From Rickettsiales bacterium (lineage in GTDB: Bacteria > Pseudomonadota > Alphaproteobacteria > Rickettsiales > UBA3002), in assembly GCA_046154225.1 (NCBI GenBank), contig JBJXEM010000007.1, positions 84,961-148,960 of the forward strand: a DNA stretch of 64,000 bases. The letters are read 5' to 3'. Under the pieces are notes generated by a model. It did no database searches, had not been told where the DNA came from, and was given only the letters and a program-made list of their open reading frames with translations. Below are positions 8,602 to 25,776 of the stretch, piece by piece. The position numbers and the translations under genes are program-made. The first letter of the stretch is position 1, and every line of letters begins with the position of its first letter.

Positions 8602-8723
8602 TGTCATCCCGGGTTTATCCCGGGATCCAGCCAAGCCACGTAGCGTGACATCCTGTTACTGGGCTGGATCCCGGCACCTGCCTACGCCAAGGCTTCGGCA
8701 AGGCAGGCAAGGCCGGGATGACA
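8602..8723. repeat. Palindromic element family A with nested 31-bp insert
   Basis: TGTCATCCCGGG...CCGGGATGACA; right arm carries CCTGCCTACGCCAAGGCTTCGGCAAGGCAGG at 8677-8707. Confidence 0.9.
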
Positions 8724-15124: not shown

Positions 15125-15180
15125 TGCGCCAAATTTTACACTAGTATCCAAATTTTACACTCTTAATGACAATAAAACCC

Positions 15181-15268
15181 TGTCATCCCGGCCTTGTGCC
15201 GGGATCCAGCCCTAACTCAGGCATATGGCATGGGTGGGGCTGGATCCCGGGACGAACCCGGGATGACA
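15181..15268. repeat. Palindromic element family A
   Basis: TGTCATCCCGGCCTTGTGCCGGGATCCAG...CTGGATCCCGGGACGAACCCGGGATGACA. Confidence 0.9.
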
Positions 15269-15472
15269 CTCGGGTTTGGCCTAAGGAAACAGCTTAAACA
15301 TCACTTTCAGGGTGGACTCAGTACCCATTTATCCCCAACAACCACGCTGAAAGTGCTTGAGCGTCGCCGCCAGATCGGGTAGGTAAACGCACTTTGCAGC
15401 CCTGTGTCATTAGGCGTCACCGCCGCACAGACTGCGCAGACTGTTGTTTTTGTGTGGAAAGGTTACGTTATT

Positions 15473-17395
15473 TTGCACTCGACCCCGCTTCTTGACATGG
15501 TGAATGACCCGCGTGACACCCGGGGCTTTTCGCTTGAGCAACTCAAACAACTGGCCGCTGAACTGCGCTCGGAAACGGTGCGCGCGGTGTCGCACACCGG
15601 CGGGCATTTAGGCGCGGGCCTAGGGGTGATCGAACTCACCGTGGCCCTGCACCACGTGTTCAACACGCCCGACGACAAGCTGATCTGGGATGTGGGCCAC
15701 CAGACCTACCCGCACAAAATCCTCACCGGCCGTCGCGACCGCATCACCACCCTGCGCCAGCCGGGCGGCCTGTCGGGCTTCTGCAAACGCGACGAAAGCA
15801 TTTACGACACGTTCGACGCGGGCCACAGCTCCACTTCCATTTCCGCCGGTGTCGGCATGGCCGTCGCGCGCGATCTGGCGGGTAAAAACAACGAAGTGAT
15901 CGCCGTGATCGGCGACGGGGCGATGAGCGCCGGTATGGCCTACGAAGCTATGAATAACGCAGGTGCCCTGGGCACCCGCCTGATTGTGATTCTGAACGAT
16001 AACGACATGTCCATCGCGCCGCCGGTTGGGGCCATGAGCTCGTATTTGTCGCGCCTTATTTCGTCGCATCCTTACCGCTCGCTGCGGCATTTGGCGAAAG
16101 TGGTCGCCAGCAAATTCCCCGAGCCGCTGATGCGCATGGCCCGCTCGGCCGAAAAACACATGCGTGGCATGGCCACCGGCGGCACCTTGTTCGACGAGAT
16201 GGGCCTGTATTATGTCGGCCCCGTCGACGGCCACAACCTCGAGCACCTCGTGCCCATCCTGAAAAACATCCGCGACGAAAAGGATTCGGGCCCCGTGCTC
16301 ATCCACGTCGTGACGCAAAAAGGCCATGGCTACGCGCCCGCCGAAGCGTCGGACGATAAATACCACGGCGTGAACAAGTTCGATATCGCCACCGGCGTGC
16401 AGAAAAAATCGGTCGCCAGTGCGCCGAGCTACACCAAAGTGTTCGCGACCAGCCTGGTGGCCGAAGCGCAGGCCGACGATAAAATCGTCGCCATAAGCGC
16501 GGCCATGCCGGGCGGCACAGGGCTCGATATTTTCGGCAAAGCCTTTCCCAATCGCACGTTCGATGTGGGCATCGCCGAGCAGCACGCCGTCACCTTTGCC
16601 GCTGGCCTCGCGACGCAAGGCTACAAGCCATTCTGCGCCATTTATTCCACCTTCCTGCAACGCGCCTACGACCAGGTGGTGCACGACGTGGCGGTACAAA
16701 AACTCCCCGTCCGTTTCGGCCTCGACCGCGCCGGGCTTGTAGGTGCCGACGGCCCGACGCATGCGGGGGTATACGACCTCGCCTATTTGTGCGCATTGCC
16801 GCATTTCGTGGTCATGGCTGCCGCCGACGAACTTGAGTTGATGCACATGGTAGCCACCTCCGCCGCGATTGACGACGCGCCGAGCGCCATCCGCTACCCG
16901 CGCGGCGAAGGCATTGGCCTCGAGCTGCCCAAACGCGGCACCGTGCTTGAAATCGGCAAAGGCCGCATGGTGAAAGAAGGCGGCACACAAGTCGCGATCC
17001 TGTCGCTCGGTACACGCCTCGCCGAAAGCCTGAAAGCCGCCGAGCAGCTGGAAGCGCAAGGCATCTCCGTCAGCGTGGCCGACGCCCGTTTCGCCAAACC
17101 GCTCGACGAAGCGCTGATTACCAAATTGTTCAACGAACACGACCTCGTCATCACCGTCGAGGAAGGTGGCCATGGCGGCTTCGGCGCACATGTGCTGGCA
17201 TTCGCCGCCAGCGCCGGTTTGCTCACCAAGGCCGACGCACGCACCCTCACCTTGCCCGATACCTTCATCGAGCAAGGCATTCCGTTCGATATGTACGAAG
17301 AGGCCGGGCTGAATGCGAGCGGTATCGTGAAGGCTGCCGTGGAGGCTTTAAACATCGCCGACGCCCAGCCGCAAAAACTGCGCAAGGTGAAGTAA
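15473..17395 (+). CDS. dxs: 1-deoxy-D-xylulose-5-phosphate synthase
   Basis: [53 protein letters not shown]; start placed at TTG 15473 after GGAAAGG. Confidence 0.96.
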
Positions 17396-17553: not shown

Positions 17554-17669
17554 TATAGTCGTTCCAATTTTAATTGGGACGACTATGAATGACTGCGAAG
17601 CAGGAATTCCGCCGCGAAGCGAGCGTGACCCCAAATAAAAATGTCTCATTTTTATTTGGAAACACTATA
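17554..17669. mobile_element. Candidate MITE with TATAGT-type terminal inverted repeats
   Basis: Left end TATAGTCGTTCCAA, right end TTGGAAACACTATA; internal hairpins; a similar solo end at about 34565-34584. Confidence 0.5.
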
Positions 17670-18287
17670 GTTTGGTAATGCTTCCGCCTGTTTTTGCGAA
17701 ATCAGTCGTGGTGCCAGCGCCTCAAACGTACGGTCCATCGCCACCGTATTATTCAGCCCGAACGCCGAGAGATGGCCATAACGCAGCGAAAGTTGGTGGC
17801 TGGCCGTCGCCGCATCTTCGTGCTTCAGCGCCGCGAGGTAAAGCGCCGCCGCCAGCCCCGAACGATCGGCCCCGCCGCGGCAGTGAATCCACAAGGGTTT
17901 AGGGGCATCGCGCATGATGGCGATAAGCTGCGCGGCCTGCGCCTCGGTCAGCTCCCGCTTCGACGACATGCGGAAATTCAGGTGTTTTATCCCGGCCTTC
18001 TCGCTCGCCGCCAGTTCGTTTTGATACCATGGCGATTTCGCGTTCTCGCCGCGCAAATTCAAAATCGTGCGGATGCCGTATTGCTGGCTGTATTGCGCAA
18101 TCGCATTGCCTTCGGGCTGCGCCGAACGGTACAATTCGCCCGGCACCACTTCGTGAAAATTATCGCTGTATTGCAACCCGCCAAGGTAAAGCCCCAGCGC
18201 CAATGGCACCAGCAGGGCACGCAGCACCCAACGCAGCACAAAACGGCGGCGGCGTTTGGGGGCTTCAGGCATCGACGTATTTTTCAT
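17652..18287 (-). CDS. Membrane-anchored tyrosine/dual-specificity (PTP-fold) phosphatase
   Basis: HCRGGADRSG (HCx5R) motif, NFHEVVPGELYRSAQP, N-terminal hydrophobic helix. Confidence 0.85.
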   Translation of the reverse strand: MKNTSMPEAPKRRRRFVLRWVLRALLVPLALGLYLGGLQYSDNFHEVVPGELYRSAQPEGNAIAQYSQQYGIRTILNLRGENAKSPWYQNELAASEKAGIKHLNFRMSSKRELTEAQAAQLIAIMRDAPKPLWIHCRGGADRSGLAAALYLAALKHEDAATASHQLSLRYGHLSAFGLNNTVAMDRTFEALAPRLISQKQAEALPNYSVSK

Positions 18288-18484: not shown

Positions 18485-18587
18485 TTATCCCGAAAAACCA
18501 TCTTTACATCCTGAAGCCCCTGCGGCATCGAAATTTTATACGGCGCTTCGTACTGTGGGTGCATCCACACAGAACGAGGAGATACCG

Positions 18588-19127
18588 ATGTCCAACGTAG
18601 TTAAAAAAGTTGAGTACACGACACAGAACCCCGACGACCCCAATGTACGCGACCCCGAACACGCGCATGAGCTGGGCGGTGCGCTCGGCATGACTGTTGG
18701 CGGTGTGGCAGGCGGTATTGCTGCCGGCGTTGCAGCGGGTGCTGCCATGGGTTCAGTTGCTGGCCCTATCGGTGCCATTGCCGGTGCTGCTATTGGTGGC
18801 GCATTGGGCGGCGCTGCGGGCGAAAGTATAGCCGCGAATGTGAACCCCACAGTGGAAGAAAAATATTGGGAAACGACTTATGTCGATCGCCCTTACGTTC
18901 AGCAAGGTCGTAATTTCGATCATTACCGCCCGGCCTACCGTCATGGGATTGACGCTTATTCGAAATATGCAGGTAAATCGTTTGAAACCGTTGAGCCCGA
19001 ACTGCGCAGCAGTTGGGAAACGACGTATCCAGAAAAAGATGCGCTCGACTGGTCGGACGCACGCGACCCCGCACGCGATGCTTACAACCGCGTCCGCGAA
19101 AATTATTTCAAGAATAAAAAAGCTTAA
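18588..19127 (+). CDS. Glycine-zipper domain protein
   Basis: GAGGAG RBS; long GxxxG repeat (GGVAGGIAAGVAAGAA...GAAIGGALGGAAG) followed by EEKYW..YRPAYRHG domain. Confidence 0.75.
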   Translation: MSNVVKKVEYTTQNPDDPNVRDPEHAHELGGALGMTVGGVAGGIAAGVAAGAAMGSVAGPIGAIAGAAIGGALGGAAGESIAANVNPTVEEKYWETTYVDRPYVQQGRNFDHYRPAYRHGIDAYSKYAGKSFETVEPELRSSWETTYPEKDALDWSDARDPARDAYNRVRENYFKNKKA

Positions 19128-19158: not shown

Positions 19159-19190
19159 AACGGGAGTGGCCATGCCACTCCCGTTTTTTT
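19159..19190 (+). terminator. Rho-independent terminator
   Basis: ACGGGAGTGGC-cat-GCCACTCCCGT stem followed by T run. Confidence 0.85.
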
Positions 19191-19271
19191 GTCGGCATGG
19201 ATTGACGCGCGGTAAGGTTTCTTAATTCCCTTTTGCATAAAAAAACACGTATCGGGTAAGCAATTATACAC

Positions 19272-19390
19272 TGTCATCCCGGGTTTATCCCGGGATCCAG
19301 CCCCACTTACGCCTTGTGCCAGAGGTAGGGCTGGATCCCGGCACCTGCCTACGCCAAGGCTTCGGCAAGGCAGGCAAGGCCGGGATGACA
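19272..19390. repeat. Palindromic element family A with nested 31-bp insert
   Basis: Right arm identical to that of 8602-8723, insert at 19344-19374. Confidence 0.9.
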
Positions 19391-19443: not shown

Positions 19444-20787
19444 ATGCATCCGCACAGCATAAACACGCAGCGATTAAGCGGCTGGGGCAACAGCCCGGTG
19501 GAAAGCTGTGCGGTGTGGCCGTTGCACGTGCCGGGCGATGCAGCGCGCATCATTCCCCTCGCCCCGAGTCTCATTGCCTATGGCGGTGGGCGCTCGTATG
19601 GCGACGCAGCGCTGAATCCACCCGGCACGGCCAAAACTGGCGCACTCAACAGCTTCATCGCGGTGGATGACGCGACGGGCATTACCACCGTCGAGGCCGG
19701 AGTCACTCTGCGCGATGTGCTGGACGCCATGGTGCCGCGCGGGTGGTTCCTGCCGGTGATTCCGGGCACGCAGTTCGCCACCATCGGCGGTGCATTGGCC
19801 GCCAATGTGCACGGCAAAAACCACCTGCGCATGGGCGATTTCGCGCGGCATGTGCTGTCGTTCGACCTGACACTCGCGAGCGGCGAAACCGTTTCGTGTT
19901 CGCTTGAGATCAATCCCGAATTATGGCACGCCACCATCAGCGGGCTCGGCATGACGGGCATCATCGAAAACGTGACGCTACAGCTCATGCCCATTCAATC
20001 AGCGCGCATGGAAGTGGCTTACACGGCCTGCGATTCCATTGAAGCGATGCTGGCGCAGTTTGAGGCACAGCGCGATTGCGCGGAATACCTCGTCGGCTGG
20101 GTCGACCATTTCGCGCGGGGCGCGCAGCTTGGGCGCGGCATTGTGGAAGCGGCGCGGCATGTGGCGGTGGCCGATGGCTCACTGGCCGCGCATCGGCCCA
20201 CACGCTCAGCACTCAACGTGCCGTTTTTTGCGCCAAGCTTCACCCTTAACCGCTACAGCATGGCGCTGTATAACGCGCACCGGTTCCGTCAGGCGCTTAA
20301 AACGCCCACGCGCACGGTGGGTTTTGCACATTTTTTTCACCCGCTCGATGGCATCGGCCACTGGAACCGGCTGTATGGCAAGCGCGGGCTGCTGCAATAC
20401 CAGTTCATCGTGCCGGATGGCGCATCGCTGCGGCCGATTCTTGAAGCCTTACAGCAAGCCAACCAATTCTCGTTCCTCGCGGTGTTGAAGGCGCATGGCG
20501 AGGGCAACGGCCTTATGGGTTTTTCGCGCCCCGGCTACAGCCTCGCGCTCGATTTCCCGAACACGCCTGCGGTGCATTCGTTGCTCGACAGCATCGACCA
20601 ACTAGTGCTCGCGGCTGGCGGGCGTGTTTACCTCGCAAAGGATGCGCGGCTAAAACGTGACGTTTTCAAAGCCATGTACGCCCACGCGCTGCCGCAGTGG
20701 CGCGCCACGCTGAAAGCATTTGACCCCACGGGGTATTTCATGAGCAGCATGGGCCGTCGCCTCGGTTTCAAGGAGTATGCATCATGA
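19444..20787 (+). CDS. dprE1: FAD-binding oxidoreductase, decaprenylphosphoryl-beta-D-ribose 2'-oxidase (DprE1) homologue
   Basis: GGGRSYGDAA, TIGGALAANVHGKNH, LYGKRGLLQYQF, LALDFP, GGRVYLAKD; followed by DprE2- and UbiA-like genes. Confidence 0.85.
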   Translation: MHPHSINTQRLSGWGNSPVESCAVWPLHVPGDAARIIPLAPSLIAYGGGRSYGDAALNPPGTAKTGALNSFIAVDDATGITTVEAGVTLRDVLDAMVPRGWFLPVIPGTQFATIGGALAANVHGKNHLRMGDFARHVLSFDLTLASGETVSCSLEINPELWHATISGLGMTGIIENVTLQLMPIQSARMEVAYTACDSIEAMLAQFEAQRDCAEYLVGWVDHFARGAQLGRGIVEAARHVAVADGSLAAHRPTRSALNVPFFAPSFTLNRYSMALYNAHRFRQALKTPTRTVGFAHFFHPLDGIGHWNRLYGKRGLLQYQFIVPDGASLRPILEALQQANQFSFLAVLKAHGEGNGLMGFSRPGYSLALDFPNTPAVHSLLDSIDQLVLAAGGRVYLAKDARLKRDVFKAMYAHALPQWRATLKAFDPTGYFMSSMGRRLGFKEYAS

Positions 20788-21512
20788 GTCACGCATTCAT
20801 TCTCGGGGCCACCTCCACCTTGGCACGCAGCGTGTGCCAGCAACTGGGGCCCACCACCGCGCATTTCACCCTCGTCGGCCGCGATGAGGAAAAGCTGGAG
20901 CGGTTGCAGCGCGACCTCAGCGCCCGTACCAACGCGAAAGTGTCGATTGAGGTGATTGATTTACTGGCTCCGTTTGACGCCCCCGCCCTCATCGCCCGCG
21001 CCGAAGAAGCCCATGGCCCCATCACCCACGGTTTCAGTTTCCCGGGCGCGCTCGGCAATGGCCGGGTGGACGACGCGGCGAATATCGCGGCGCTGGCGCT
21101 GGTGAATTACGTCGCACCCGCGCAATTTCTTACCGCCATCGCCGCGCGTATGCAGAAACGCCGCGCGGGGCAGCTTGTCGTCATTTCCTCGGTCGCGGGC
21201 GACCGGGGGCGCGCCAGCAATTACGCCTACGGCGCGGCTAAAGCGGCGCTGTCCACCTTCACCGGTGGGCTGCGCCAGCTGCTGCATGAGTCCGGCGTGC
21301 AGGTGCTACTCGTGAAGCCGGGATTCATCGACACGCCGATGGCCGCGGGTGTCAAAAGTAAACTCATGGCTTCGCCTGATGCAGTGGCTGCGATTATTCT
21401 CAAAGCCATGGAAAAAGGCAGCGGCAGCATTTACGCGCCGTGGTTCTGGCGGATTATTATGGGCATCATCATCCACCTGCCCGCCCCGATTTTCAACCGT
21501 TTGAAATTATGA
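20784..21512 (+). CDS. dprE2: SDR, decaprenylphosphoryl-2-keto-erythropentose reductase (DprE2) homologue
   Basis: ILGATS, SSVAGDRGRASNYAYGAAKA, VKPGFIDTPM; ATGA overlap with dprE1. Confidence 0.8.
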   Translation: MSHAFILGATSTLARSVCQQLGPTTAHFTLVGRDEEKLERLQRDLSARTNAKVSIEVIDLLAPFDAPALIARAEEAHGPITHGFSFPGALGNGRVDDAANIAALALVNYVAPAQFLTAIAARMQKRRAGQLVVISSVAGDRGRASNYAYGAAKAALSTFTGGLRQLLHESGVQVLLVKPGFIDTPMAAGVKSKLMASPDAVAAIILKAMEKGSGSIYAPWFWRIIMGIIIHLPAPIFNRLKL

Positions 21513-22369
21513 CCCCACTTCTCAAGCTCTGCCGCCCGAAACAGTGGGTGAAAAACCTGTTCGTGCTGGCGCCGCTGGTGTTCGCGCAGCAGGCGGGGCA
21601 GGAACAGCCGCTGCATATGGCACTGGTGGCATTCGTGGCGTTCACGCTCGCCTCGATCGTCGGCTATATCGTGAACGATATGCGCGACCTTGATGCCGAC
21701 CGCCTGCACCCCAAAAAACGCTTGCGGCCATTAGCGGCAGGCACCGTCAGCCTCCATCAGGCGAAACTGCTCATCGTGGCGCTGGTGGTGCCGTTGATTG
21801 CACTGGTATCGATATTGCCGATGGAGGCGACGCTCACCATTCTCGGTTATTTCCTGCTCATGCTGTGCTACTCGCAATGGCTCAAGCACATCGCCATTAT
21901 CGACGTGATGGTGATCGGCGCGGGTTTCGTACTGCGGCTGCTGGCAGGCGGCTACGCCACCGGCATTGCGCTCTCGCCATGGATTATTCAGGTGACGTTT
22001 TTGCTGTCGTTGTTTCTCGGCTTCGGCAAACGCTACGGCGAAATCACCAGCGACACGGGAAACTCTGCGCGCAAAAGCCTGCATGGCTATTCCAGCGAAT
22101 TCCTCGACCGCTTAATGGCCATCTGTTGCGGCGCGACGCTTTTGTCCTATGCCATTTACGCAGTGGATACGGCCGCACGCCTCCACCGCACGGCGTTTGT
22201 CTATTCCAGCCTGTTCGTGGCGTTCGGCATGTTCCGCTATTTGCAGCAGCTTTACCTGCACAGCCACGGCGAAGCACCGGAAGAAGCGCTCTACCATGAC
22301 CGGCTTTTCCTCGCCAACATCGTGGCATGGCTGTTGTTTTGCCTGTGGCAATTTGGCGGAGCGGCTTAA
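21509..22369 (+). CDS. UbiA-family polyprenyl-phosphate phosphoribosyltransferase (Rv3806c/NoeC-like)
   Basis: RPKQWVKN, YIVND.RD...DR.HPKKR.RPLAAG, LFLGFGKRYGE; ATGA overlap with dprE2. Confidence 0.88.
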   Translation: MTPLLKLCRPKQWVKNLFVLAPLVFAQQAGQEQPLHMALVAFVAFTLASIVGYIVNDMRDLDADRLHPKKRLRPLAAGTVSLHQAKLLIVALVVPLIALVSILPMEATLTILGYFLLMLCYSQWLKHIAIIDVMVIGAGFVLRLLAGGYATGIALSPWIIQVTFLLSLFLGFGKRYGEITSDTGNSARKSLHGYSSEFLDRLMAICCGATLLSYAIYAVDTAARLHRTAFVYSSLFVAFGMFRYLQQLYLHSHGEAPEEALYHDRLFLANIVAWLLFCLWQFGGAA

Positions 22370-22442
22370 AATCGCGCAGGCGCAAACATGGCATGCATAA
22401 GCAAGCGCTTGCCAGCAGCGAAATTTCCGCCATGCTCTGGCA

Positions 22443-23366
22443 ATGCCAACACGCACCCCATCCATCGCCGTATTGTTGCCGTGCTATAACGAGGCCATTA
22501 CCCTCGCGCAGGTGATTGGCGAATTCAGGCAAAGCCTGCCCACCGCGCGCATCGTGGTGTTCGACAACAACTCGAAGGATGACTCCGTCGCCATCGCCAA
22601 AGCGGCGGGCGTAGAAGTTTTCCATGTGAACCTGCAAGGCAAAGGCAATGTGGTGCGCCGCATGTTCGCCGATATCGACGCCGATATTTACGTGATGGCC
22701 GATGCCGATGCGACCTACGACGCCAGCCGCGCTAGCGAATTGGTGGCGCCGATTATGAGCGGCGAGGCAGATACCGTCATCGCCGTGCGCGAGGCAGATC
22801 GCAGCGCGTTCCCCTCGGGCCATTTGTTCGGCAACAAGATGTTTAACTTAGTGGTGGGTCGCCTTTTCGGGCGCGGTTTGCGCGATATTTTCTCGGGCTA
22901 CCGGGCATTTTCGTACCGCTTCGCCAAAAGTTTCCCGGCCCACAGCGAAGGCTTCGAGATAGAAACCGAAATGAGCATTTTCATCCTCGAACAACGCATT
23001 CCGGCGCTTGAAATCGGCATGAAGTACGGCGTGCGGCCTGAAGGCTCGGTCAGCAAACTGCACACCTACCGCGACGGGTTTCGTATTTTAATGACCATTC
23101 TGCGCTTGTTCAAGGAAGCAAAACCCCTGCTGTTCTTCTCGATTTTCGCGGGCCTGTTTGGGTTCGGTAGCCTCATGCTCGGCCTGCCGCTGGTGAATGA
23201 ATGGAGCGAAACCGGCATGGTTCCGCGCATGCCCACGGCCATTCTGGCCTCGGGCTTCGCGCTGCTGGCTGTGATTGTCTTCGTAGCCGGGTTGATGCTC
23301 GACAGCGTGGCGCGCACCTACCGCGAAACGCGCCATTTGCGTTACCTCAACGCCCGTCGGAATTAA
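22443..23366 (+). CDS. GT2 polyprenol-phosphate glycosyltransferase (GtrB/DPM-like)
   Basis: LLPCYNEA, DNNSKD, QGKGN, MADADATY, DIFSGYRAF, GFEIETE, two C-terminal TM helices. Confidence 0.88.
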   Translation: MPTRTPSIAVLLPCYNEAITLAQVIGEFRQSLPTARIVVFDNNSKDDSVAIAKAAGVEVFHVNLQGKGNVVRRMFADIDADIYVMADADATYDASRASELVAPIMSGEADTVIAVREADRSAFPSGHLFGNKMFNLVVGRLFGRGLRDIFSGYRAFSYRFAKSFPAHSEGFEIETEMSIFILEQRIPALEIGMKYGVRPEGSVSKLHTYRDGFRILMTILRLFKEAKPLLFFSIFAGLFGFGSLMLGLPLVNEWSETGMVPRMPTAILASGFALLAVIVFVAGLMLDSVARTYRETRHLRYLNARRN

Positions 23367-23367
23367 C

Positions 23368-23775
23368 GTGCGCCAGCGCGTCACAGAATTCCTGCGCTTT
23401 TGCATCGTGGGCCTGATGGGCTATTTCGTCGATGCGGGCACACTCGAATTACTGGTGCATGCGGGTCTGGAAAGCTGGCTCGCGCGCGTCTTTTCCATCC
23501 CGACCGCCCTACAATGCACTTACGCGCTGCACGGCCTGTTCACCTATCGCGGCCATGGCGATTTCAGTCGCCGAAAATGGGCCGGATTCATGCTGTACAA
23601 CCTGCTCGGTGCGGCCATTAACTATACGATTTTCCTGATCGTGCTGCGCATGCTACCTTTCACTTCGGAACTGGCGCAACGGCAAGGCGCGTTGTTTTGC
23701 GGTATGGCCGTCGCACTATGGTTTAACTACTGGGCGACGCGACACTTCGTGTTCCGCCGCGCGGATCGCCCATGA
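23368..23775 (+). CDS. GtrA family flippase
   Basis: 135 aa, four hydrophobic segments, FLRFCIVG start and FNYWATRHFVF end. Confidence 0.85.
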   Translation: MRQRVTEFLRFCIVGLMGYFVDAGTLELLVHAGLESWLARVFSIPTALQCTYALHGLFTYRGHGDFSRRKWAGFMLYNLLGAAINYTIFLIVLRMLPFTSELAQRQGALFCGMAVALWFNYWATRHFVFRRADRP

Positions 23776-25664
23776 GCACGCGCCTCGCCGATTACAGAAA
23801 CGGGCTGCTGGCATTGCTGGTGATGCTCGTACCACTGGTGCTGATGGTCATCCGTCACTGGCACGACATTCCGCTCGATGCGAACGGCCGCGCGTTCGGC
23901 GTGGCCGACCCCGACCCGTGGCTGCGCCTCACCCTCGTGCGCGAATGGCTGAGCGGCGGCAGTTGGTTCGATCACAGCGTCGCGCGCACGAATGCACCGT
24001 TCGGCGGTATCGTCAGCCCGTGGACGCGGCCGCTGGATGTGGTGATCGCCGCCTTCACGCAGCTGCAACCCTACAGCGTCGCGCTCGACATTCGCCTCGC
24101 GCGCACGGCGCTCATGCTGCCGGTGCTGTGGGCGGCACTCATGATGCTGGGTGTTTACCGTGCCGTGTGGGCCTTCGCGCCCATGCGCACTGTGCTATGG
24201 ATGGCCAATGCGTTGGCCCTCACCGGCCTTTCCATGTGGGCCTTTTTTGTCGCGGGCTATGCCGACCACCACGCGCCGCTTGCGGTGCTGTTGGTGTGGG
24301 TGGTGGGCGGCCTGTTGCGGGGTGATAAATTTTCGCTGGGCTTCAGTGGCGTGCTGCTCGGCCTCATGCTGTGGATGAGCCCGGAAGCGCTGATTCTCAT
24401 CGGCGCGATTTACGCGTGGCTGGGCCTCGCGTGGCTACGCGGCGCACCACTGGCGGCGAAACAATTGCTGCTGGTATCGGGTTACGCTGCCCTCACCACC
24501 ATTGCGGCGCTACTGATCGAGAGGCCCGAAGCACAATGGTTCACGCCAGTCTACGATTCCATTTCCATCGTGCATGCGTGGCTGATGGCGGGCTGTGCGT
24601 TGATTGCGTTGCTGATGGTGACGATCGAGGGCGATGCGCTACAGCCACTCACCTTCCGCTGGCGCTGGCGTATTGCGGCAGTGAGCGTGGCGTTTCTGCT
24701 CAAACTGCTCCACCATTACTACCCGCTGTTTTTCGCGGGGCCCATGGTGGGGGTCGACCCCTACATCACCAATCATTTCCTGAAAATCATCACCGAGGCG
24801 CAGCCTGTCACCAGCCATCACTGGCTGTTCATCGCCGCCATGCTGGCACAACCGCTTATGGCGCTTTGCGTCACGCTACGCGCCACGCGCGGGGGCAGCG
24901 TTATCCCCCAAAAGCAGGCGCGGCTGCTGGCGTTTCTTCTGGCGTTTACGCTGTTGCTCTACGCGGTCGAGCAGCGCTGGTATTATTATTTCTACCCGCT
25001 AGTCGTCATCACCCTTGCCCCGTGGCTGGCGGCGCTGATGAACCCGACGCACCCCCTCACCACCGGCCGCGCACCGGCGCGTTGGCTGGAAGCCCTGACG
25101 CCGAACCAGCAGGCACTGCGGCGCATGCCGGTGGTGCTTGCATTGTTAGCCGCGCAAGGCCTTTTATTGCTGGCCGCGCCCGATGAAACCACCCCGCGTT
25201 CGCGCAACATCAACACCTGCCATGCCAAAGCACGCAGCCTCATTTACAGCGGTGCGCTGAATGATTTGGGCGGTGGCAAACCCCTTACCGTTTTCACTTC
25301 CACCGACCTTGGCGGTGAAATCCTGTTCTGGACACCGCATCGCATCATCGCCTCGAACTACCACCGCGAGGGGCCGGGCATTCGCTATGTGTGGGAGGCC
25401 GATGCGATAACCGACGCACAGGCATTGCGCCGCTACTTGGCCCAGCGTCATGTCGATGCATTACTGATTTGCCCCGTCGTTCGCGCGCCGGAAGCAAGTG
25501 TGCTGCAAGGCCTGCAACAAAGTAAACCAACGCCCGCATGGCTGAAGCGCGTAGCCGTCACCATTCCGCTAAAGCCCGACACGGACGCGAAACCCACGCC
25601 GGACGACATGCCGGATAGCACCTCCAACCCCGCCGTTTTTCTGGTTGTGGGCCATAGAACTTGA
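23772..25664 (+). CDS. Multi-pass GT-C glycosyltransferase, STT3/AglB-like
   Basis: DPDPWLRL..PFGG..PW..P.D, GYADHH, about 11-13 hydrophobic segments, soluble C-terminal domain VFTSTDLGGEILFWTPHRIIASNYH; ATGA overlap with gtrA. Confidence 0.7.
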   Translation: MSTRLADYRNGLLALLVMLVPLVLMVIRHWHDIPLDANGRAFGVADPDPWLRLTLVREWLSGGSWFDHSVARTNAPFGGIVSPWTRPLDVVIAAFTQLQPYSVALDIRLARTALMLPVLWAALMMLGVYRAVWAFAPMRTVLWMANALALTGLSMWAFFVAGYADHHAPLAVLLVWVVGGLLRGDKFSLGFSGVLLGLMLWMSPEALILIGAIYAWLGLAWLRGAPLAAKQLLLVSGYAALTTIAALLIERPEAQWFTPVYDSISIVHAWLMAGCALIALLMVTIEGDALQPLTFRWRWRIAAVSVAFLLKLLHHYYPLFFAGPMVGVDPYITNHFLKIITEAQPVTSHHWLFIAAMLAQPLMALCVTLRATRGGSVIPQKQARLLAFLLAFTLLLYAVEQRWYYYFYPLVVITLAPWLAALMNPTHPLTTGRAPARWLEALTPNQQALRRMPVVLALLAAQGLLLLAAPDETTPRSRNINTCHAKARSLIYSGALNDLGGGKPLTVFTSTDLGGEILFWTPHRIIASNYHREGPGIRYVWEADAITDAQALRRYLAQRHVDALLICPVVRAPEASVLQGLQQSKPTPAWLKRVAVTIPLKPDTDAKPTPDDMPDSTSNPAVFLVVGHRT

Positions 25665-25687
25665 TTTAATAAATGGGTGTGGAAGTG

Positions 25688-25776
25688 TGTCATCCCGGCC
25701 TTGTGCCGGGATCCAGCCACGCAACGTAGTAAGTGCCTATGGCTTGGCTGGATCCCGGGATAAACCCGGGATGACA
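25688..25776. repeat. Palindromic element family A
   Basis: TGTCATCCCGGCCTTGTGCCGGGATCCAG...CTGGATCCCGGGATAAACCCGGGATGACA. Confidence 0.9.

Follow-up and report, generated by a model that had tools for sequence, protein, structure and literature searches.

A predicted polyprenyl-phospho-arabinofuranose cassette at the head of a GtrB/GtrA/STT3-like operon in an uncultured alphaproteobacterium

The window analyzed here is a stretch of 64,000 nucleotides from a Rickettsiales bacterium (assembly GCA_046154225.1, contig JBJXEM010000007.1, positions 84,961 to 148,960 of the forward strand). It harbors three adjacent genes encoding a DprE1-like flavoenzyme, a DprE2-like short-chain dehydrogenase/reductase (SDR), and a UbiA-family phosphoribosyltransferase. 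This cassette (also referred to as the triad) is the head of a six-gene operon, which continues, all on the plus strand, with a family 2 glycosyltransferase (GT2), a GtrA-family protein, and a GT-C membrane glycosyltransferase (Table 1). Because homology, motifs, and synteny agree, the gene identities and the synthesis of a polyprenyl-phospho-D-arabinofuranose (polyprenyl-P-D-Araf) donor are very probable. The joint reading, namely that the cassette makes this donor, that it was inserted 5′ of a resident operon, and that the STT3-like GT-C of the latter is the most likely user, is considered probable as a whole.

All three frames of the cassette are intact and the catalytic motifs are kept. 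The stop and start codons overlap as ATGA between the DprE1 and DprE2 genes (20784–20787) and between the DprE2 and UbiA genes (21509–21512). An earlier interpretation made from the letters of the DNA (the sequence-only reading) had reported three translationally coupled genes with motifs of the DprE1, DprE2, and Rv3806c types, and the open reading frames (ORFs), the overlaps, and the families were all borne out, to a degree that chance would not produce. However, it described the cassette as a three-gene unit and overlooked the larger operon with GT2, GtrA, and GT-C. The longest ORF of the DprE1-like gene begins at TTG 19432; the start is likely ATG 19444, four nucleotides downstream of GAGGGG, in agreement with the start given previously.

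The DprE1-like protein contains a Pfam FAD_binding_4 domain and scored 356 bits with the NCBIfam DprE1 model NF053785, the next family reaching 56 bits. Residues 11–444 were aligned to the DprE1 structures 4aut and 4fdn of Mycobacterium smegmatis and M. tuberculosis (E 4e-71 to 1e-66). The best single PDB match was 4aut (E 3.8e-71), and the nearest structure of a FAD oxidase other than DprE1 followed at E 7.8e-12. In the alignment to the PDB sequences, the active-site motifs HGKNH, LQYQF, and AKD are kept, and the equivalent of Asn385 is Ser; the corresponding residues of M. tuberculosis DprE1 are presumably His132/Lys134, Gln334/336, and Lys418. The protein is soluble, lacking both a signal peptide and a transmembrane (TM) segment. 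For the DprE2-like protein, a classical SDR with the Ser-Tyr-Lys triad kept (SS.AG.R.R..N..YG..KA) and likewise without a signal peptide, the best NCBIfam model was PRK07102 (230 bits, cut-off 267), which describes an unnamed SDR; the DprE2 model NF053786 gave 150 bits. Its top PDB match was DprE2 of M. tuberculosis (21gq_C, E 1.2e-25), with polyketide and generic ketoreductases at 1e-13. The UbiA protein exceeded the curated cut-off (207) of the decaprenyl-phosphate phosphoribosyltransferase model NF008978 with 226.8 bits and matched the structure of this enzyme (DPPRS, PDB 8j8j) with E 3.6e-41. Its loop-II motif NDMRDLDADRLHPKKRLRPLAAG aligned to NDVRDVEADREHPTKRFRPIAAG of 8j8j, the pattern NDxxDxxxD...HPxKRxRPxAAG being kept. 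The NDxxDxxxD residues of loop II are needed for activity in Citrobacter youngae ORF15 and in M. tuberculosis DPPRS (PMC11127046). A crude hydropathy scan predicted at least seven TM segments, and no fused HAD phosphatase domain was found in the 286 amino acids with Pfam and NCBIfam. The closest solved structure of each of the three proteins is thus an enzyme of the M. tuberculosis pathway or its mycobacterial counterpart, by wide margins, and in this check by profiles and structures against DprE1, DprE2, and Rv3806c, a grouping with generic FAD oxidases or SDRs, which the sequence-only reading had named as the result that would speak against it, was not seen. The ratio of nonsynonymous to synonymous substitution rates (dN/dS) of UbiA against the relative L146 was 0.07 at dS 0.77; the cassette appears to be functional and kept under purifying selection.

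Table 1. Features of the six-gene operon and its flanks (positions of the window)
Feature	Position	Strand	Remarks
DprE1-like FAD-dependent polyprenyl-phospho-ribose 2′-oxidase	19444..20787	+	447 aa from ATG 19444
DprE2-like SDR, polyprenyl-phospho-2-keto-pentose reductase	20784..21512	+	242 aa; Pfam adh_short
UbiA-family polyprenyl-phosphate 5-phosphoribosyltransferase (PPPRS/DPPRS, Rv3806c type)	21509..22369	+	286 aa
Conserved ~37-nt motif in the UbiA–GT2 spacer	22400..22436	+	contains near-palindrome GCGAAATTTCCGC; alignment of window, L146, and L161
GtrB/AglJ-like GT2 polyprenyl-phosphate glycosyltransferase	22443..23366	+	307 aa; Pfam Glycos_transf_2
GtrA-family small membrane protein	23368..23775	+	135 aa; PF04138, 71 bits
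STT3/AglB-like GT-C membrane glycosyltransferase	23772..25664	+	630 aa, multi-spanning; ATGA overlap with GtrA gene
Palindromic repeat element resembling a miniature inverted-repeat transposable element (MITE-like)	19272..19390	+	terminal inverted repeat TGTCATCCCGG / CCGGGATGACA; 5′ intergenic region of the operon
MITE-like element, second operon-flanking copy	25685..25776	-	short form, inverted; directly 3′ of the operon

The best model for the GT2 was TIGR04182 (AglJ), whose score of 212.7 bits lies under the cut-off, and two C-terminal TM helices (226–277) correspond to the architecture of GtrB, ArnC, and AglJ. The GtrA gene begins with GTG one nucleotide past the GT2 stop codon, and its product is a candidate flippase or hub for polyprenyl-P-sugars; only two GtrA domains are present in the genome, one in the operon and the other fused to another GT2. 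No Pfam family matched the GT-C, for which NCBIfam gave a weak archaeal STT3 match. A profile of 38 GT-C homologues matched the C-terminal domains of Archaeoglobus fulgidus AglB-S (3vu0 and 3vgp, E 0.0015 and 0.0078, respectively), and full-length AglB-L with E 0.1. In this alignment, TDLG is set on the WWDYG motif of AglB, while WWDYG itself is not present. Several homologues are fusions of GtrA and GT-C, which argues for a functional tie between the two proteins, and the GT-C is a candidate transferase for lipid-linked sugars. The spacer of 74 bp between the UbiA and GT2 genes contains no terminator-like site, and the six genes are presumably co-transcribed. The spacer motif listed in Table 1 is nearly invariant in three lineages (the window, L146, and L161) with a coding dS of about 0.75, and it may serve the resident GT2 operon as an operator or internal promoter. 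As the native leader of the GT2 gene it was not upheld; the upstream regions of L147 and L148, which lack the triad, were too diverged to be aligned.

The genome (2.18 Mb, 57% GC, 98.5% complete) was compared with relatives that are metagenome-assembled genomes labeled as Alphaproteobacteria or Rickettsiales; the identity of its PurA to that of diverse Alphaproteobacteria does not exceed 70%. Within the genus, the GT2 is far better conserved (69–72% identity among congeners) than the GT-C (approximately 45%). Of six congener loci examined, four have the GT2 gene next to the GT-C gene, with no DprE genes there; in most of the six, GT2 and GtrA accompany the GT-C, followed by hisZ and purA in conserved order. 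The GtrA of the operon is 40–59% identical to GtrA of congeners lacking the triad, whereas no tblastn match was obtained to the GtrA genes following UbiA in sister families. Congeners differ in the make-up of the resident module: GtrA and GT-C without an adjacent GT2 were found in G002 (L151), GT2 and GT-C without GtrA in G008 (L154), and GT-C alone in G022 (L155). Two metagenomic contigs, whose GT-Cs are 79% and 72% identical to that of the window, carry the order UbiA-GT2-GtrA-GT-C with a spacer of 73–74 bp, so that UbiA and its junction with the GT2 gene are retained in three diverged lineages.

Among 23 congeners, a DprE1 homologue was detected in G008 only. Its cassette (L144, G008:C25:844-4324) consists of a HAD-phosphatase-UbiA fusion (472 amino acids), DprE1, and DprE2, in this order, and lies on a contig separate from the one with the GT2 and GT-C genes. 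In the tree, this DprE1 sits on a long branch outside the clade formed by the window and its same-order relatives, which suggests that such a cassette entered the genus twice, independently. Outside the genus, DprE1 with 45–48% identity was found in six of the 16 other families of the order. Together with one genome from the genome-contig collection, these six family genomes make up seven same-order relatives, in all of which the triad is linked; six have the genes side by side as DprE1-DprE2-UbiA, and in L141 UbiA lies 2.7 kb downstream. Three of these seven cassettes have their own GtrA right after UbiA, one a PAP2-like gene, and beside three of the triads large membrane proteins are encoded that belong to two families without annotation. 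The latter (515/692 amino acids in L138; 605 amino acids in L141 and 835 amino acids in L002) are unrelated to the GT-C of the window and have no homologue in this genome. In a maximum-likelihood tree rooted on two mycobacterial sequences, DprE1 of the window falls into a clade with exactly these seven same-order sequences (Shimodaira–Hasegawa-like approximate likelihood ratio test support 98), which is separate from other alphaproteobacterial homologues. All eight members are linked to UbiA, and the seven relatives are without the GT2. The simplest reading would be that the triad of the window is an accessory, order-typical cassette that, devoid of a phosphatase, flippase, and transferase of its own, was inserted immediately 5′ of the resident operon in the ancestor of a small sub-clade and has been kept since.

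On a wider scale, DprE1 homologues (E ≤ 1e-50) were detected in 59 of 401 genomes sampled evenly across the class, corresponding to 53 of 308 genera. Several of them (e.g., G207, G290, G144, G415, and G350) lie in open frames of 780–926 amino acids, which suggests a fusion of DprE1 to another domain, possibly DprE2. A scan of genome contigs yielded 49 DprE1 loci, most with adjacent DprE2 and UbiA genes, in Actinomycetota, Planctomycetota, Verrucomicrobiota, Bacteroidota, Cyanobacteriota, Myxococcota, Armatimonadota, Gemmatimonadota, Acidobacteriota, Margulisiibacteriota, and Pseudomonadota. The label "mycobacterial-type" previously attached to the pathway is right with respect to the identity of the enzymes, but with this spread over part of the class and more than ten phyla the pathway is not specifically mycobacterial. 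The finding supports the view of the "mycobacterial" pathway as a widespread bacterial module.

Homology, motifs, the layout of the operon, the distribution of the genes, and purifying selection are observed; from them we infer the following scheme, which covers the product as well as phosphatase, flippase, transferase, and acceptor. The UbiA-type enzyme would transfer ribose-5-phosphate from phosphoribosyl pyrophosphate to polyprenyl phosphate, presumably undecaprenyl phosphate in this Gram-negative organism, and the 5-phosphate would be removed by a phosphatase encoded outside the operon. A housekeeping phosphatase is plausible for this step, because loss of NoeN in Rhizobium sp. IRBG74 (PMC5080398) or of PsPA7_6245 in Pseudomonas aeruginosa Pa5196 (bioRxiv 10.1101/2020.04.19.049825) only lowers arabinosylation. 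The DprE1-like flavoenzyme would then oxidize C2′ of the ribose, and the DprE2-like SDR would reduce the 2-keto intermediate to the arabino configuration. Since neither protein has a signal peptide, this epimerization is expected to take place on the cytoplasmic face of the inner membrane. The resident GtrA might carry the Araf-lipid to the periplasmic face, where Araf would be passed to a periplasmic or surface acceptor by a GT-C, the presumably co-transcribed STT3-like enzyme being the most likely one, alongside a hexose-type donor made by the GT2.

Several observations weigh against this scheme. The organism is known solely from a metagenome assembly. The DprE1-like and DprE2-like proteins (356 and 150 bits) miss the NCBIfam equivalog cut-offs of 500 and 250 bits, respectively; these cut-offs appear to be tuned to Actinobacteria, because Corynebacterium was the only one of 14 control genomes to exceed the DprE1 cut-off. 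No gene for a phosphatase of the PAP2 or HAD type, which could act on decaprenylphosphoryl-5-phosphoribose (DPPR), is present in the operon. Gene order and operon membership are all the evidence from which we infer the STT3-like GT-C as the user of Araf. This GT-C occurs in 21 of the 23 congeners, 20 of which do not have the triad, and it was found neither in the six triad-bearing genomes of the same order nor near the triad in the 49 loci of other phyla. Furthermore, dN/dS values of 0.08 for the GT2 and 0.10 for GtrA (window versus L146, dS about 0.75) indicate purifying selection, and with the GT2 thus maintained, the donor originally used by the GT-C is still supplied.

That the insertion of the cassette gave the STT3-like GT-C polyprenyl-P-D-Araf as a second donor beside the hexose donor of the GtrB/AglJ type is a tentative proposal, possible but rather doubtful in our estimation. 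If true, this would be the first STT3-like enzyme transferring arabinofuranose and a case of natural donor-swapping in periplasmic glycosylation, possibly with arabinosylated proteins in a Gram-negative bacterium.

A serious alternative, which we judge to be unlikely, is that the cassette makes polyprenyl-P-Araf but its position in the operon has no functional meaning, and that the donor is used by an unlinked transferase, such as one of the PMT_2/ArnT-like GT-Cs (C32:7238-8764 or C18:8786-10285) or an unrecognized enzyme. The distribution of the STT3-like GT-C described above is in line with this, as is the fact that none of the other triad loci has a homologue of it and that it keeps its own GT2. 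Moreover, the sugar cluster and the transferase TfpW of P. aeruginosa are unlinked (bioRxiv 10.1101/2020.04.19.049825), and the genome considered here has two further GT-Cs besides the STT3-like one, three being recognized in total. However, each of the two PMT_2/ArnT-like enzymes is located in its own operon with its own dedicated GT2 donor synthase, which makes the STT3-like enzyme the most economical candidate. The junction of triad and GT2 with the same spacer, which is shared by three lineages with GT-C identities as low as 72%, also argues for a meaning of the operon position. In addition, the cassette came without, or has lost, the GtrA and membrane proteins accompanying it in some sister families, and homologues of these membrane proteins are absent here.

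Far less probable is a pathway in which the DprE1/DprE2-like pair acts on a polyprenyl-P-hexose made by the GT2 and epimerizes C2 of the hexose, so that the product would not be arabinofuranose. A GtrB-type GT2 is indeed encoded in the same operon, but a bona fide UbiA of the DPPRS type is translationally coupled to DprE2, and the DprE1 clade is linked to UbiA in eight of eight members and free of the GT2 in the seven same-order relatives. Because the GT2 adjoins the GT-C in congener loci without DprE genes (four of six), its partnership with DprE1 and DprE2 appears to be secondary. Hardly credible is the view that the cassette was taken up recently and is now silent or in decay, without a present function: its patchy distribution (one of 23 congeners and six of 16 same-order families) and the MITE-like repeats flanking the operon would fit, but the intact frames and catalytic motifs, the UbiA dN/dS of 0.07 at dS 0.77, and the retention of UbiA and the GT2 junction in three diverged lineages do not.

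The predicted synthesis of polyprenyl-P-D-Araf by the cassette, with the proposed transfer through a GT-C, resembles several known systems. With the decaprenyl-phospho-arabinose (DPA) pathway of mycobacteria (Rv3806c, Rv3807c, DprE1 Rv3790, DprE2 Rv3791, and the GtrA-like Rv3789) it has the three enzyme families and their motifs in common, at an identity of about 35–40% as judged by eye from alignments, as well as a GtrA-family protein in the gene neighborhood. Differences are the replacement of Cys387 by Ala, the lack of a gene for a PAP2 phosphatase (Rv3807c) and of Emb/Aft arabinosyltransferases, and the lipid, presumably undecaprenyl phosphate instead of decaprenyl phosphate. In addition, the cassette is accessory, restricted to a sub-clade of the genus, and not part of an essential cell-wall machinery. 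In P. aeruginosa, DPPRS, DprE1, and DprE2 are required for Araf glycosylation and a GtrA-like protein contributes; the arabinosylated pilins of Pa5196 are recognized by antibody against mycobacterial lipoarabinomannan (bioRxiv 10.1101/2020.04.19.049825). The cluster PsPA7_6245-6249 of strains Pa5196/PA7, which acts with TfpW on the type IV pilin, is likewise a Gram-negative combination of DPPRS, DprE1, DprE2, a GtrA-like protein, and a GT-C-type transferase. In contrast to the window, this cluster contains both an Rv3807c-like phosphatase (6245) and its GtrA; TfpW is unlinked and Emb-like, whereas the candidate proposed here is linked and STT3-like, and a link to pilin is not evident.

The logic of the cassette is also that of the three-component model derived from C. 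youngae O1/O2 (ORF15-ORF14-ORF12; Kelly et al., 2024), in which PPPRS makes undecaprenyl-P-ribofuranose, epimerases diversify it (DprE1/DprE2 in the case of Araf), a flippase exports the product, and a GT-C adds the sugar in the periplasm (PMC11127046). According to the same study, DprE1/DprE2 homologues are found wherever Araf side chains occur in Gram-negative glycans (PMC11127046). Compared with that system, the window has no fused or adjacent phosphoribose phosphatase, although the congener G008 has the HAD fusion, and it contains an additional GtrB-type GT2 in the operon. The flippase is a MATE protein there and a candidate GtrA here (GtrA/SMR-like in M. tuberculosis and P. aeruginosa), and the transferase belongs to GT136, whereas the neighboring GT-C is STT3/AglB-like by its own profile, the two families being contrasted by description. 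An alphaproteobacterial precedent for the use of DPPRS, DprE1, and DprE2 homologues in forming lipid-linked D-Araf is the rhizobial noeC(N)HOP operon (Azorhizobium caulinodans and Rhizobium sp. IRBG74; PMC5080398), in which the candidate phosphatase NoeN is dispensable (PMC5080398). Unlike the operon of the window, it encodes its own transferase, NoeP, and serves the decoration of Nod factors. Neither nod genes nor NoeP were recognized in the annotated section from about 17.6 to 25.7 kb (the search did not extend to the remainder of the window or to the genome), and no dedicated arabinosyltransferase was recognized near the cassette. The downstream half of the operon (GT2, GtrA, and GT-C) has exactly the layout of the GtrA/GtrB/GtrC systems for hexose modification and of archaeal AglJ/AglB, where AglB has WWDYG at the position of TDLG.

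The pathway is already known and is common outside mycobacteria; what sets the present case apart from published systems is only that the cassette has been docked onto a GtrB/GtrA/STT3-like operon. We know of no description of a GT2-GtrA-GT-C trio coupled to a DPA cassette, although no literature search was aimed at that pairing. Use of the Araf-lipid by the STT3-like enzyme would have to be demonstrated for the docking to matter. Its point of interest is modularity, with a donor cassette that lacks its own flippase and transferase plugged into a resident operon, which gives a compact six-gene system suited to probing donor promiscuity of an STT3-like GT-C. If the assignment of the cassette is correct, one more uncultured alphaproteobacterial lineage would join the Gram-negative bacteria with D-arabinofuranose in the envelope.

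Cys387 of M. tuberculosis DprE1 is the covalent target of benzothiazinones, a residue that determines drug sensitivity but not catalysis. In the HMMER alignment, PGYSLALDFP of the window is set on PGWNICVDFP of M. tuberculosis, and the exchange of this cysteine for Ala had been read correctly from the sequence. Among 56 non-mycobacterial homologues from related loci, 50 have Ala at this position, two Thr, two Ser, two Gly, and none Cys; the one actinobacterial sequence among them (Ilumatobacteraceae) has Thr. The cysteine has been described as conserved in Actinobacteria, and natural resistance to benzothiazinones is on record for M. avium, which has Ala, and M. aurum, which has Ser (PMC3206020). 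The insensitivity deduced for the organism is therefore sound as an expectation but not special to it: Ala appears to be the usual residue outside mycobacteria, and insensitivity is probably generic to essentially every non-actinobacterial homologue. Being the norm, it is uninformative about this organism, and the exchange is without practical weight.

The six-gene operon is bracketed by two oppositely oriented copies of a MITE-like repeat family of about 90–120 bp with the terminal repeat TGTCATCCCGG and the internal hairpin CCGGGATCCAGCCC. The window contains four copies (expected 0), the other two being located at 8605–8720 and, on the minus strand, at 15150–15265. In the 2.18-Mb genome 44 copies were counted, 11 of them inside approximately 77 kb of the operon's contig (C7), where the repeat is thus locally dense. 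A MITE-flanked transfer of the six genes as a unit was rejected as the main explanation, because the synteny GT2-GtrA-GT-C-hisZ-purA is kept in congeners. With respect to public contigs, no record of the exact DprE1 protein sequence was found, and the GT-C sequence was found in a single Logan contig of 2.5 kb.

Upstream of the operon, an ORF of 190 amino acids (orf190, 18555–19127, plus strand) contains a glycine-zipper-like segment GGALGMTVGGVAGGIAAGVAAGAAMG; it has no family match and no homologue among the related loci. It is followed by a rho-independent terminator at 19159–19192 (stem 19159–19185 and T run). A membrane-anchored phosphatase resembling dual-specificity and protein tyrosine phosphatases (DSP/PTP-like, 17652–18287, 211 amino acids) is encoded on the opposite strand approximately 1.1 kb upstream of the operon. 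It was rejected as a cassette-specific DPPR phosphatase, since a homologue with 48% identity is located upstream of GtrA and GT-C in G002, which lacks the triad; it could be a generic lipid-sugar phosphatase. Approximately 2 kb upstream of the triad lies dxs (15404–17395), which encodes the first enzyme of the isoprenoid precursor pathway. In G033 (L143, G033:C60:1695-6555), which belongs to another family of the order, dxs is directly beside the triad, and its proximity in the window may be a coincidence or a remnant of an ancestral linkage. When the dxs regions of five congeners were compared with the window, no shared synteny was seen.

The operons of the two PMT_2/ArnT-like GT-Cs differ in composition. 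On contig C32 (5461-8764), which thus carries a second module for lipid-linked glycosylation, a cytidylyltransferase/cupin gene is followed by a GT2 fused to a C-terminal GtrA (367 amino acids) and the PMT_2/ArnT-like GT-C (508 amino acids), and then by a gene encoding an alpha-2-macroglobulin-like protein of 2031 amino acids. The arn-like operon on contig C18 (8786-14329) encodes a UDP-glucose 6-dehydrogenase (Ugd), an NAD-dependent epimerase, an ArnC-like GT2, a membrane protein of 303 amino acids, and the PMT_2 GT-C (499 amino acids), and probably adds a modification of the uronic acid type to lipid A or the core of the lipopolysaccharide.

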